Below, piece by piece: positions 1-3,000 of a stretch of DNA of 39,945 nucleotides (positions within the stretch are counted from its first letter, which is position 1; each line of letters begins with the position of its first letter). Source of the stretch: Synechococcus sp. (GTDB taxonomy: Bacteria > Cyanobacteriota > Cyanobacteriia > Thermostichales > PCC-7336); NCBI GenBank assembly GCA_051439605.1, contig JBFRWN010000042.1, positions 1 to 39,945 of the forward strand, written 5' to 3'. A program made the position numbers.

Positions 1-3000
1 CCCATTGGCAATCATCTGAATTGCTCGAGGAGCACCGGGGTCAAACCCGCCGAAATCCCACGACAGCGGATCTTTAGGATCGACCAGCGAGATGCGGTAG
101 GGGGCCAACGTGACGTAAATCGCCTTGGCATTGGGGTTCACCTTGCGACGATATGCCGCCAGCGCTTGGCTGGGGTGCCGACGACCGGCCCAAGACTCCG
201 AATCCGTCCAAAAGCAGATGACATCAGCCCAGAACTGCTTCTTAATCGCCCAATCGTAGGCCACCGAAGCATCCGTCCCGCCAAAATTATGGCGGTTTGT
301 CTTCTGCATCGCCGAGTGGAAACTATCCCGAGCCGTAATGCCCAGATCCTTGAACGTAGTGGCGAATCCGCGAATGGCGAAGTTATCCTCCGCCTTCGCC
401 GTCACCAATGCCATCACCGTGGCAATTTCGCAGCAGGTCAAGTTCACCGAGCTGACGGTGTAATAGGACATCGACCCCGATACATCCACCGCATGCAAGA
501 AGGTTTTGCCCGTAGGCTCCACTGTCTCGAAAGACAGCTCCAGAGCTTTTTCCAGAATGTCGCAAATGCGGGGGATGGGGTCCCAAGACTTTTTGCTGCG
601 ACCCACGCGCCCGCCGGAGCGGTAGGTCTTCAGCGCCTTGAGGACGTCTATGGGGTGAATGCGACCCTTGCGCAGGCGATCACGACTGGTCAGCACTGTC
701 GCCACCCGCTTCAAGTTCTTGGACTTATGCGCCCGCAACACGCCAATCTCCGTCAGAGAGCCAAGATTGCGCAACAGTGCCCCAATCGGCATGTCCTCAA
801 ACAACAACTGCCATACCCGCTCGTCCATCTTCCCGATGGGAGCCACCATTTCGTGGGTCAAGCGACCCTCGGCGATCGCCATGCAGGTGCTTTCGGGATT
901 GCGCTTCAGCCATTCGTACCACCAGATTTGCGACAGGGGGCCGGTGGGAACCTGCTTGGGCAAGTCCTCCCAGCCATGCACCACCCAGTCGTACAGCGCC
1001 TGATGCTCTGGCGTGGCAGGCTTGGCGTGGAACAATCGCAAGGCATCCCGATTCGTGAATCCGTGCCGTTGCTGGTATTTCAGCAATTGGTATGCCAACT
1101 GCTTCACATCCGGCTTAGACAGCCAGCTTTTCCCGCATTCCCGCACCACTTTGCCGAAACCGCGCAAGGATTTGGTGTAGTTCAACCATTCGTAGAAATG
1201 GCTACCGGTGCGGACGACTTTGGGGAAAATTTCCATGAATGCCCGCTTTGCAGCAGGAGAATCCCCCATCGACAGCAAGACCAGAGCGAAGAGGGGAGCG
1301 CTGTTGTTGATGGAACGGCCATCGCTAGCTGCGACAATTTCGCAAGCGGTGCGATCGGGGTCTTCGTCAACGCAGGCGAGCACTACGTCCGTGAAGTCAC
1401 CCGTCAGATCGTGCTTGTCTGCGTAGTAGGTGCTTTGGGCAGTACCGATCAGCAAGCAGCGGGTGAGCATTTTCCAACTGCCCGGATCGAACATGTAACC
1501 GCCCGATCGCCCCTGTACCATTTCGCGATCGCGCCCCGGAATGGGCTGAGACTGAGGGGTAGCGGTGGGTGAAGTGAAAAATTCGTATGTCATAACGCTT
1601 CTCCGTCCCTGATGGGATATGTGAAAGGTGTCCCCAAACGGGGAAGGGAGACGGGCGGGATTCGAACCCGCATCTCGGCGGACAAAGGGGGGTCGTCCAT
1701 AGCGATAACCTTTGTCCTTCGGCCCTAACGGGCGATGGTGCGCTCTACCGTTGAGCTACCGACTCCATAGAGTTTGGAAATGTGTTGGACGGGAGGGGAC
1801 TCGAACCCCTGACCGGTAATCCTCGGTCTTCGACCCCGAAAGGTAAGGAGCGATCGAGGTACTGCTCTGCCCACTGAGCTACCCGCCCAAGATTGTTTCG
1901 ATTGGTGTTGTCTGGTGGACGGAGGGGGATTTGAACCCCCATCTCCCGCTTGGAAGGCGATAACCCCGATTCGGCGACCCTTGCGGGTAAATGGGTGAAA
2001 AGGGAAAAGGTGTTCTGCCGTTAAACTATCCGCCCAAGTTGTAACTGGTGGACGAGTGGGGAGTCGAACCCCGTCTTGCCATGACCGATAACCTTCACTC
2101 GGCGACCCTTGCGGGTAAGTGATGAATAAAGGGGAAGAAACTCGCCCAAGTGGTGTGTAGTGGAGGAGGACTCGAACCTCCAGATGACGCAGTTCCAGCG
2201 ATAACCCTCACTCTTCGACCCAATGGGTAAGGTTTGAACGAGGCAATTCGACTGCCGCCTTTACCAATTTGGCCACCCACTACAGGTGTTGCGATTCGGT
2301 TCGCTTGGCTTTCGCCGCCCGTCCCTCATCGACATCCCAAGACTAAGGGCGGTAGTTGCCCCCATTCGAATTTGAAGAATGTCACCTCAAACGCATACGC
2401 TACAACGGATTGCAGTTAGGGGGGCATGTTGAAGTTGGGGGTACCCCCTAACTTTGTTTGCGGATTCACTTAATGCCAAAGCAAAGCTACGGACCATTGA
2501 CCAAAGAGCGATCGCGATTGCTCCTGTTTTCCCTGCTAGATTTCGCCAATGACAGTCTGGATACAGACGAGAGACAGCTGGATCTGCTGCGATCGCACCT
2601 ACAAACCCACTGGCAATCCTCCACCCGCCTAGTCGTTCGTACCAAACTTCGCTATCTGCAAGCCCTTTCCAAACTGGCCAGTGCGGGGGAGGGCCTCTCC
2701 CTACCCCACATCAAGGCAGCTCTCAAACATCTGGCCGAGTTTGTCGGCATTTTGGAAGACAACCGCACCGTCAAGCGGGGTTCCGACCAATGGCATTTCA
2801 CTCTGAGATGGTGGCGCGATCGCTGGGAACGGGAGGCTAATCTAGCTCACTTCGATCGCGCATGGGAAGCCAACCGACCGGATCGCGTCCAAGAGTCCTC
2901 TAACCCAGAGCAAGAGACTGAGACAGCAAGCAAAATCGGCGATCGCTGGCAACAGCTATGCAGAGAAGCCTTAGACACTCGACTGACCAGTAACCCTATG

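Follow-up and report, generated by a model that had tools for sequence, protein, structure and literature searches.

Among described bacterial Y RNAs, YrlA (RF02553) is encoded beside the Ro60 gene rsr on the same strand, in several copies per locus, and carries GNCGAA and YUAY motifs together with D and T arms. The T arm of YrlA precedes the D arm, the acceptor is a closed loop, and the Ro60 helix is formed by the RNA's own ends, with only its 5′ strand conserved according to Chen et al. 2014 (PMC4201824). Wang et al. 2018 (bioRxiv 10.1101/312249) describe YrlA without an anticodon loop and treat its arm as a variable arm. In D. radiodurans Yrn1, a D-like arm precedes the T arm and both strands of the Ro60 helix are kept, but the helix is the terminal stem and occupies the acceptor position. 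Nematode sbRNAs and vertebrate Y RNAs have no tRNA body, and their helix is closed by the RNA's own ends.

Here we analyze a stretch of 39,945 nucleotides from Synechococcus sp. (the window; contig JBFRWN010000042.1, GCA_051439605.1), in which five tRNA-like modules share with YrlA the place beside rsr, both motifs, the D and T arms, and the multiple copies. In contrast to YrlA, the order of elements is D arm, insert, anticodon loop, and T arm, the acceptor ends are free and often carry an encoded CCA, and the Ro60 helix is capped by a tetraloop and conserved in both strands. Unlike in Yrn1, the helix forms an internal branch, and a tRNA acceptor serves as the terminal stem. We propose to read every module as a Y RNA in unpermuted form, in which a Y-RNA stem is inserted into the body of a tRNA, and we give this reading, with its topology, maturation, and Rsr binding taken jointly, a probability of roughly 0.8. 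The loci themselves are already known: as the genome-wide survey's note had suspected, Table S1 of Chen et al. 2014 (PMC4201824) lists cyanobacterial YrlAs at homologous loci. Those authors read them as permuted, and our reading of the topology differs.

Five modules upstream of rsr

The five modules are real. They run head to tail on the minus strand from 2283 to 1646 and adjoin the 531-aa Ro60 ORF, as the survey had reported (Table 1). Compared with D. radiodurans Rsr (2NVO) the encoded protein scores 254 bits, and compared with X. laevis Ro60 (1YVP) it scores 237 bits. With the R1 covariance model the modules score 47-101 bits, and the next-best match in 1500-2500 has 7.8 bits.

Table 1 Features of the window around the array
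Feature	Position	Strand	Basis
rsr, Ro60/TROVE gene, 531 aa, cut by the contig end	1..1593	-	Pfam vWA_Ro60 126.8 bits, TROVE 65.2 bits
Hairpin-tip copy in the rsr 5′-UTR, running into the Shine-Dalgarno; candidate operator for Rsr autorepression	1601..1619	-	sequence; weak R1 match
Module 5	1647..1765	-	R1 55.8 bits; Rfam tRNA 41.9 bits
Module 4	1786..1888	-	R1 73.4 bits; Rfam tRNA 46.6 bits
Module 3	1913..2035	-	R1 100.6 bits (itself in the R1 training alignment)
Module 2	2046..2147	-	R1 47 bits; D arm deleted in alignment
Module 1	2157..2283	-	R1 83.8 bits
Candidate array promoter: G-rich box, then TANNNT hexamer	2340..2363	-	pattern shared with other loci
G/C palindrome between array and divergent gene; possible operator	2432..2454	.	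seen in sequence
EAD4-NACHT-HEAT gene, divergent; possible regulator, putative link to array	2473..5349	+	Pfam

Module 3 is the most complete, with a D arm, a T arm, and a GCAA-tipped hairpin inside a split 5-bp anticodon stem that bears the loop CUUCCAA (1956-1950). Its 7-bp acceptor, with G3-U70, A73, and an encoded CCA, recurs in module 2, which has a GCAA-tipped hairpin, a T arm, and a degenerate anticodon loop. Module 4 combines a 7-bp acceptor (G3-U70, A73) and a D arm with a UUCG-tipped Ro60 hairpin and a T arm, and its anticodon loop is gone. Module 5 has both arms and a short hairpin, with the partner strand of the latter located 3′ of a CUAUGGA loop; a short-stemmed 7-nt loop is kept, and the encoded CCA is absent. 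Module 1, the array's first element, has a 3-bp D stem, the hairpin, an irregular remnant of the anticodon loop, and a T arm. A complete anticodon arm is found in only one of the five. The survey had described a 7-bp acceptor with D and T arms in every module; this holds overall, except that module 2 has no D arm (the other four have both arms), the acceptor of module 5 forms 6 of 7 pairs (U-U mismatch), and that of module 1 has at least 8 bp, G-1:C73 included.

The survey's Rfam result is reproduced, with tRNA matches of 46.6 and 41.9 bits and partial YrlA matches that reach only 26.3 and 23.7 bits where the cut-off is 69. Since Rfam scores the modules as weak tRNAs, they are easily mis-annotated. 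The reported ARAGORN calls with 22-32 nt "introns" are obtained for four of the five modules when introns are allowed, not for the fifth, and a separate tRNA-gene search calls none of the five. The reported score gap between modules (>55 bits) and true tRNAs (30-41 bits) depends on the model: under our own R1, scores of up to 59.5 bits are seen for true tRNAs of other genomes, against 47 for module 2. The range of one to seven modules per rsr locus elsewhere fails at its upper limit, as locus L024 has eight upstream modules.

As in the window, parsed modules lie on the rsr strand, no more than a few kb from the gene, in 78/80 related loci; these loci are mostly Nostocales, so that counts over them are not independent. 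A long R1 match (>60 bits) is present in 14/14 genomes with a full cyanobacterial-type rsr and in 0/127 genomes without an rsr match; it is also absent from four genomes with distant Rsr (G043, G046, G076, and G079). The same tRNA-bodied design does occur beside distant Ro60/Rsr genes. Two borderline R1 matches come from genomes without an rsr match; that in G091 was rejected as a partial tRNA duplication, and that in G052 spans a permuted-type unit and the following T arm. On viral contigs, modules are present in 5/80 loci of one scan for long R1 matches and 3/80 of another; a further 37 loci were scanned without R1 scoring and 79 by pattern alone, and pattern matches are mostly chance. The Rsr tree was built by a quick method and its root is unresolved, so we draw no ancestral direction from it.

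The inserted hairpin and the anticodon arm

The survey held that a long arm stands in place of the anticodon arm, which is incorrect. The hairpin interrupts the anticodon stem and leaves the loop in place, in full in module 3 and on a short stem in module 5. Among class A modules the split 5-bp anticodon stem is complete in 104/113, and 0/113 have a complete stem without the split; U33 is present in the anticodon loops of 104/105 modules (8/10 with the same parse in a non-cyanobacterial set). On these counts we reject replacement of the arm. The split stem and 7-nt loop are seen in actinobacterial and phage YrlAs too, and the "variable arm" of YrlA is this same anticodon loop. Module 4 and the S. 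Typhimurium YrlA have no loop, indicating that it is dispensable in some copies.

The hairpin geometry is found in 211/215 modules, most commonly with the strands CUUGCC (123/211) and GGCCGA (135/211). The GGCCGA strand fits the GNCGAA motif of Chen et al., and a GNCGAAN0-1G-type motif is present in a bulged helix. Both strands, together with UUAUC, match the Rfam consensus of nematode sbRNA (RF01656), GGUCCG...GGGUUAUC with the partner CUUGACC; UUAUC is conserved both in the insert and in the group of nematode sbRNAs and vertebrate Y RNAs. At locus L359, an open-ended hairpin beside a module scores 53 bits with the nematode model (cut-off 38). The insert is a bulged, presumably Ro60-binding helix with the UUAUC motif and a tetraloop cap; it interrupts the anticodon stem in its 5′ strand, following base 28 or 29. 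Motif identity and co-occurrence with rsr make it very probable that Rsr binds this helix, and support the survey's view of the modules as the likely Y-RNA partner of cyanobacterial Ro60.

The loops retain tRNA-like features while their triplets vary. Purine 37 persists, the tRNA-like G36-G37 rule is followed by 10/12 against 1/32 distinct loops, and positions 35-38 of 104/129 loops recur in a real tRNA of this genome. Triplets within one locus are distinct in 50/50 loci. Gly, Lys, Asn, Pro, Cys, Leu, and Ile triplets all occur with one and the same acceptor end, and no acceptor identity matches the triplet. We tentatively suggest, at somewhat less than even odds, that the RNAs are unused in decoding and that their loops serve as baits or sentinels for anticodon nucleases; the Rsr particle would absorb or sense tRNA damage and send broken RNA to decay or repair. 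A decoy idea was proposed earlier for YrlA, and the operonic tRNAs of Anabaena PCC 7120 have been proposed as sponges for toxin RNases (PMC8421152, PMC10272220). Those are true tRNAs, unlike the modules, and a term search of the main texts of the two papers finds no mention of TROVE, Ro60, or Y RNA. A 2026 tRNA-mimic preprint and PMC10562873 have no bearing on the modules.

The same RNAs, equally bound by Rsr, could instead use the tRNA body only for processing, stability, and RYPER-like tethering of Rsr to PNPase, the loop being a leftover; this alternative, which concerns function only, likewise has somewhat less than even odds. Tethering to PNPase is demonstrated in D. radiodurans, the S. 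Typhimurium YrlA co-purifies with PNPase, modules without the loop or the D arm persist, and the distinct triplets could be old paralogous slots. A mere leftover, however, does not readily account for U33, purine 37, and the G36-G37 rule persisting among varied triplets, for the recurrence of positions 35-38 in real tRNAs of this genome, or for such loops in actinobacterial and phage YrlAs.

G3-U70 is a determinant of tRNA-Ala and tmRNA. Modules 2-4 of the window have it, yet it occurs in only 8/207 modules overall, and we reject a family-wide alanine identity. The pair, with A73, is among the points that could suggest tRNAs active in translation, from which the insert is excised and the halves ligated (by RtcB, for example), or which are charged and decode unspliced. 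In accordance, removal of the insert leaves a canonical cloverleaf in 104/113 class A modules, CCA is often encoded, and rtcB is present in this genome, on another contig and not beside rsr. No contig joint that skips the insert is found across four RNA-seq runs on the Acaryochloris locus L023, a weak test as contigs drop rare forms, and a high-depth contig there includes the insert. With the identical acceptor ends for seven kinds of triplet, the rarity of G3-U70, and an extra G-1:C73-type pair common among modules, translation-active tRNAs are highly improbable.

Topology of the modules

According to the permuted reading of Chen et al. 2014, the RNA starts at the Ro60 motif and joins the T arm of one unit to the D arm of the next through a long closed acceptor. 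In favor of this published reading, partial Rfam YrlA matches do cross unit borders (27.3 bits in L023; gathering score 69), 6 or 7 of the 7 base pairs can still form across modules in 55/82 neighbor pairs, and true permuted YrlAs exist, in L091 at the same locus as an unpermuted module. Across the 82 neighbor pairs, however, a module's own ends pair better than strands of adjacent modules in 72, equally well in 10, and worse in none. With the acceptor anchored on the D arm, 7/7 pairs form in 154/166 modules. Best-of-window acceptor scores, a separate measure, are loose, because 6/7 often arises by chance.

The array ends point the same way. No D arm lies beyond the last T arm in 73/79 loci, and no T arm lies ahead of the first acceptor in 68/78; the 320 nt upstream of module 1 likewise contain none. 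A loop of 4 nt closes the Ro60 stem in 195/210 modules (at least 166 GNRA), the ends of the RNA being the acceptor, whereas spacers between modules are 5-299 nt long. Two loci (L006 and L070) have a single module, in which the YrlA model finds no match at E<=0.1. The control YrlAs have the T arm 5′ of the D arm and closed-loop acceptors of 6-7 bp whose loops measure 1-18 nt, an arrangement not found in the modules. The A. marina interval of Chen et al. begins and finishes inside tetraloops, and six of their cyanobacterial calls overlap the rsr start codon. CCA is encoded in 92/129 internal modules; of the 54 ARAGORN calls in this genome, only 2 are ordinary tRNA genes that encode it.

RNA-seq contigs are consistent with these ends. 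In run X9, a contig of depth 420 covers L023 3692-3813, which is base 1 to 73 of the second module there, insert included, unlike the call of Chen et al. at this locus (3613-3746); contigs over the rsr region have a depth of only 4-8. A contig of run X5, from another study, has its edge at the same base, 3692. Run X1 covers L023 in one piece throughout (possibly DNA) and run X13 leaves the array uncovered; neither says anything on ends. Assembled contigs cannot by themselves show ends, strand, or level, and the full-module match is one record in one of four runs. The survey's assignment of normal tRNA topology is borne out by array ends, tetraloop tips, single-module loci, and contig ends; on the same grounds the permuted reading, which it called disfavored, is now very unlikely. 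Mainly from comparative analysis, the unpermuted topology is very probably correct.

In the alignment, 95.3% of cells are paired and 22/37 pairs show two-sided changes, including every one of the 8 acceptor pairs and the two outer pairs of the anticodon stem. Decay of a tRNA array into functionless pseudogenes, to which the real tRNA genes interspersed in some rsr loci and the modules without arms might point, is scarcely credible against this pairing, the conserved insert that co-occurs with rsr, and the same design beside distant Rsr proteins.

Regulation and implications

We consider it likely that the modules are co-transcribed with rsr and that tRNA-maturation nucleases release them as stable open-ended RNAs of ~100-130 nt with CCA. 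The window has no sigma-70 promoter or terminator beyond chance, and no sigma-70 consensus at the candidate promoter. The pattern of a G-rich box and a TANNNT hexamer lies ahead of the first module in 11/13 hand-picked loci (no shuffle control). The ATACTACA-type box of the Anabaena PCC 7120 trn operon and TrcR regulon (PMC8421152, PMC10272220) lies over the -10 element in 49/75 loci, 45 of them with a -35 box, where shuffles give 1.37; the octamer is absent from the window. There, the divergent gene encodes the only EAD4 match of this genome, and 6/81 other loci have the same arrangement. The EAD4 domain model is confident (pLDDT 84.7). A winged-helix regulator is not supported, as Foldseek gives no match at E<=0.001, although the weak top rows include several winged-helix proteins. 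The pattern of the palindrome occurs at two places in the genome. It is somewhat probable that the operon answers translational stress; TrcR would mediate this in about two thirds of the loci sampled (mostly Nostocales), and a different regulator would do so in the window.

R1 gives the hairpin copy in the rsr 5′-UTR of the window a weak local alignment to its positions 42-70 (3.5 bits, E 0.68). A strict hairpin pattern over the rsr ribosome-binding site is found in 72/80 loci and 66/3332 control ORFs, an optimistic contrast since the pattern was written after viewing those sequences; the window's own variant is among the 8 misses. A first, looser pattern gave 66/81 loci and 356/2998 controls. 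Free Rsr may well bind this copy over its own ribosome-binding site, so that Rsr output would track the supply of Y RNA; we rate such autoregulation as fairly plausible.

A wider scheme would make the open-ended RNAs ancestral to YrlA: a tRNA would have gained a Y-RNA stem within the anticodon arm, and trimming of a tandem pair would then have produced permuted YrlA. The stress-induced arrays would be a bait panel, presenting different anticodon loops on Ro60 to soak up or report nuclease attack, while Ro60 meters its own synthesis through the hairpin copy on its mRNA. As a whole, this scheme is unlikely to be right in every part.

The unpermuted reading corrects the published structure of cyanobacterial Y RNAs, and what has been called the "variable arm" of YrlA becomes a tRNA anticodon arm. 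The arrays offer extant tandem units from which permuted YrlA is derivable by simple trimming, and so give a sharper form to the dimeric-tRNA origin that Wang et al. 2018 cite, the direction being left aside. Bacterial and animal Y RNAs become linked through both helix strands and the UUAUC motif. The role of the tRNA-like part of bacterial Y RNAs becomes testable in the tractable strain Picosynechococcus PCC 7002, which carries three modules ahead of SYNPCC7002_RS15900 on plasmid pAQ7.

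The window's array and its topology

A 531-aa minus-strand ORF opens the window and is Ro60/Rsr by Pfam TROVE and vWA_Ro60 matches; it scores 254 bits against D. radiodurans Rsr and 237 bits against X. laevis Ro60. Upstream of this rsr gene, on the same strand, lie five tRNA-like modules, in accordance with the genome-wide survey's note. They score 47–101 bits with R1, a covariance model that we built from 22 diverse aligned modules, including module 3. The note also gave every module a D arm and a 7-bp acceptor; module 2 lacks a D arm, and the acceptor of module 5 pairs at 6 of 7 positions. 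Rfam gives two tRNA matches in the array (46.6 and 41.9 bits) and two partial YrlA matches in the window (26.3 and 23.7 bits, cut-off 69), both across module borders.

Coordinates of the window's modules and of modules of the second class (L, loci of relatives)
Feature	Base 1/base 72	Interval	Strand
Module 1	2282/2158		minus
Module 2	2147/2050		minus
Module 3	2035/1917		minus
Module 4	1888/1787		minus
Module 5	1765/1648		minus
Second-class module, window (module 5)		1647-1765	
Second-class module, L003		3066-3195	
Second-class module, L023		3819-3948	

Modules 2, 3, and 4 (window 1786-2147) carry G1-C72, G2-C71, G3-U70, and A73, the alanine identity set; they might be alanylated. G3-U70 is rare across the family (8/207 modules).

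In the 22-module alignment, 95.3% of the cells of the specified structure are paired, and two-sided changes occur in 22 of 37 pairs, exceeding all 500 shuffles and the slid controls. RNAalifold alone recovers 30 pairs.

Loci were compared using the best 80 of 229 relatives of rsr, mostly from Nostocales, which makes the counts non-independent. Parsing without a model yielded 220 motif-plus-T-arm units across 79 loci, one of them the window; we kept 215, excluding one unit that lacked upstream sequence and four whose motif had two mismatches. The D-arm anchor is missing in 49 of these, leaving 166 anchored modules; in 154 of them, the acceptor closes 7/7 on the module's own 5' strand. Comparison of own-end with cross-module pairing in 82 neighbour pairs favours own ends in 72, with 10 ties and no reversal; cross-module pairing nonetheless reaches 6 or 7 in 55 of the 82. 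If the RNAs were permuted as in YrlA, with the T arm before the D arm, the hairpin tip would be the gap between two RNAs and the spacer would be the acceptor loop. The tip is 4 nt in 195/210 modules, mostly GNRA, and the spacers range from 5 to 299 nt. True permuted YrlAs (R. etli, Nonomuraea, phages) show a closed acceptor of 6–7 bp with a loop of 1–18 nt; therefore, the topology test discriminates. The last T arm has no D arm after it in 73/79 loci; inspection attributed the six exceptions to genuine tRNAs, to modules that were missed, or to spurious patterns. The first acceptor has no T arm before it in 68/78 loci (3 loci yielded no unit). L006 and L070 contain a single module apiece, so a permuted RNA cannot be built there, and the YrlA model finds no match in either. 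Own-end pairing, array ends, and single-module loci thus strongly support the normal tRNA topology that the note had proposed.

In L032, L050, L054, and many Nostocales modules, an extra G-1:C73 pair often extends the acceptor stem to 8 bp and is followed by A and CCA; CCA in this register is found in 68/207 modules. CCA is encoded immediately 3' of base 73, or with one nucleotide between, in 92/129 internal modules versus 4/78 last modules, and it is encoded in 2/54 ordinary tRNA genes of the window's genome (ARAGORN calls, including doubtful ones).

Anticodon arm, insert, and relation to YrlA

Contrary to the note, the anticodon arm is not simply replaced by a long arm: in 104/113 modules, bases 3' of the D arm supply the missing part of a 5-bp anticodon stem that is interrupted by the insert, which carries the Ro60-docking hairpin. 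Among 21 distinct combinations, the split stem is complete in 15 (shuffle mean 4.7, maximum 10). In the commonest class (142/215), a 3-bp stem and a 7-nt loop come after the motif, and then the variable loop and the T arm. A second class (see table) differs in where the lower insert helix has its partner strand: 3' of the anticodon loop, not 5' of the hairpin. Of the 105 modules with a full inner stem, 104 have U33 and 100 a purine at 37, and 24 distinct triplets are represented; in all 50 loci with at least two such modules, the triplets differ. The tRNA rule joining G36 with G37 is followed in distinct module loops (10/12 vs 1/32) as in real tRNAs of the window's genome (10/11 vs 1/29), and positions 35-38 of 104/129 module loops are found in a real tRNA. 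The acceptor ends are independent of the triplet. The modules thus appear tRNA-like at the loop, and decoding is unlikely.

Permuted YrlAs of Nonomuraea and two actinophages show the split stem and loop too, as does the alignment of Chen et al. 2014, indicating that the YrlA variable arm is a tRNA anticodon arm. The permuted and unpermuted forms are circular permutants of each other. Both types occur in L091:3940-4540 (genome G070), where the tRNA array downstream of rsr begins with permuted YrlA-type units and an unpermuted module.

The commonest insert strands, CUUGCC and GGCCGA, form a helix in which one C is bulged. In vertebrates, the Ro60 site has a single bulged cytidine (PMC4726728). 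The consensus of nematode sbRNA (RF01656) contains both insert strands and GGGUUAUC, and vertebrate Y RNAs have UUAUC in common with the insert. In L148:2200-2830, L160:2050-2950, and L359:3086-3151, unpermuted modules alternate with plain, open-ended hairpins that carry the same Ro60 helix; the hairpins of L359 (53 bits) and L375 pass the RF01656 cut-off of 38.

Distribution, earlier descriptions, and RNA evidence

Among 151 genomes of the phylum, a long R1 match above 60 bits is present in 14/14 with a full cyanobacterial-type rsr, in 2/6 with a distant full-length Rsr, and in 0/127 without any rsr match; true tRNAs score up to 59.5 bits. In G014, rsr is interrupted by stops (C83:18695-19488) and such a match is absent. 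Two genomes from another class of the phylum, G070 and G082, also carry unpermuted modules, as do viral and metagenome contigs; the neighbouring Rsr proteins are 31–38% identical to that of the window. Pattern parsing of 239 loci gave 34 units, some duplicates, 28 of them at 7/7 by a loose score, with rsr in 12 loci. A quick tree, its root open, sets cyanobacterial Rsr apart from distant Rsr (support 97). The unpermuted form is present in at least two Rsr lineages.

Several locus variants were observed. An extra module lies just downstream of rsr in L053:5671-5814, L038:5678-5793, L046:5635-5779, and ~20 other loci (the window's contig ends inside rsr, so this survey covers other loci); downstream modules mostly lack a D arm and have a longer hairpin after the motif. 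Viral contigs L110, L112, and L137 carry modules with no rsr in 2.5 kb flanks, those of L112 among tRNA genes. In L002, L008, L010, L011, L013, L017, L382, L404, and L409, real tRNA genes lie among the modules, or rsr and modules lie inside tRNA arrays. A tRNA nucleotidyltransferase gene (CCA-adding type; L042:1589-2977) directly precedes one array, and upstream ORF starts in L053 and L055 resemble its start.

YrlA RNAs at cyanobacterial rsr loci were already listed by Chen et al. 2014 (PMC4201824). Their first model gave few cyanobacterial YrlAs, a longer acceptor stem was noted, a second model was built, and dimeric-tRNA false positives were warned of; their alignment starts the cyanobacterial RNA at the motif seen here. 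Wang et al. 2018 (bioRxiv 10.1101/312249) repeat the long-acceptor reading, describe YrlA as lacking an anticodon loop, and cite a model that derives YrlA from a dimeric tRNA. The loci themselves were thus known; what is at issue is the topology. The literature searched, with some reviews and preprint supplements outside it, gave no prior account of the unpermuted topology, retained loop, UTR copy, or TrcR link.

For A. marina MBIC11017 (L023), we compared 4 of 16 listed RNA-seq runs, one per RNA study. In run X9, one contig of depth 420 covers 3692-3813, which coincides exactly with module 2 of that array from base 1 to base 73 and includes the tetraloop; the depth of contigs covering rsr is 4-8. 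A contig edge also falls at 3692 in X5. The interval of Chen et al. 2014 for this locus is 3613-3746, with both ends within tetraloops. X1 holds the whole stretch in one piece, and X13 does not cover the array. No joint skipping the insert is present in the assembled contigs of these four runs. Because the data are contigs, they give a hint rather than end mapping. X5 also contains a joint from the T stem of module 2 at 3793 back to its first base, 3692, which may be a reverse-transcription artefact or a ligated RNA.

Possible regulation and role

In 72/80 loci, a copy of the hairpin tip stands before rsr and extends into its Shine-Dalgarno sequence, versus 66/3332 control ORFs (pattern tightened after a first pass; L014 excluded). 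The window's UTR hairpin is a variant missed by the pattern, with a weak R1 match; some actinobacterial and phage loci have a similar motif upstream of rsr. The simplest reading is that free Rsr would repress its own synthesis at this copy.

In 49/75 loci, a ATACTACA-type octamer is present no more than 400 nt from the first parsed module (5/989 background windows; shuffle expectation 1.37), and 45 of them also have a -35 box. It matches the Anabaena TrcR site, through which the trn operon and rtcB are kept repressed until translational stress sets in (PMC10272220, PMC8421152). The octamer is absent from the window, which has a G-rich promoter-like pattern. In L451 (G000:C89:7350-8654), rtcB is on another contig of the window's genome, with no TrcR octamer seen in 400 nt around its start. 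An EAD4-NACHT-HEAT gene (window 2473-5349) is divergent from the array in 7/82 loci (window, L004, L005, L009, L021, L022, L023); it holds the only EAD4 match in the window's genome and is a candidate regulator of the array. SulP/STAS permease and short-chain dehydrogenase genes follow it (5633-8234), with no link to the array seen.

Array and rsr most likely form one transcript. Open-ended RNAs would be released from it by tRNA-maturation enzymes, the inserted helix would be bound by Rsr, and surplus Rsr would turn off its own translation. In Salmonella, tRNAs cleaved in their anticodon loops induce the rsr operon, and YrlA has been suggested to inhibit the nuclease competitively (PMC7790460). 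A panel of loops that resemble real anticodon loops and are controlled by translational stress would suit a role as bait or sentinel, to which we give slightly less than even odds; a simple tether to PNPase, the loop being vestigial, is just as possible.
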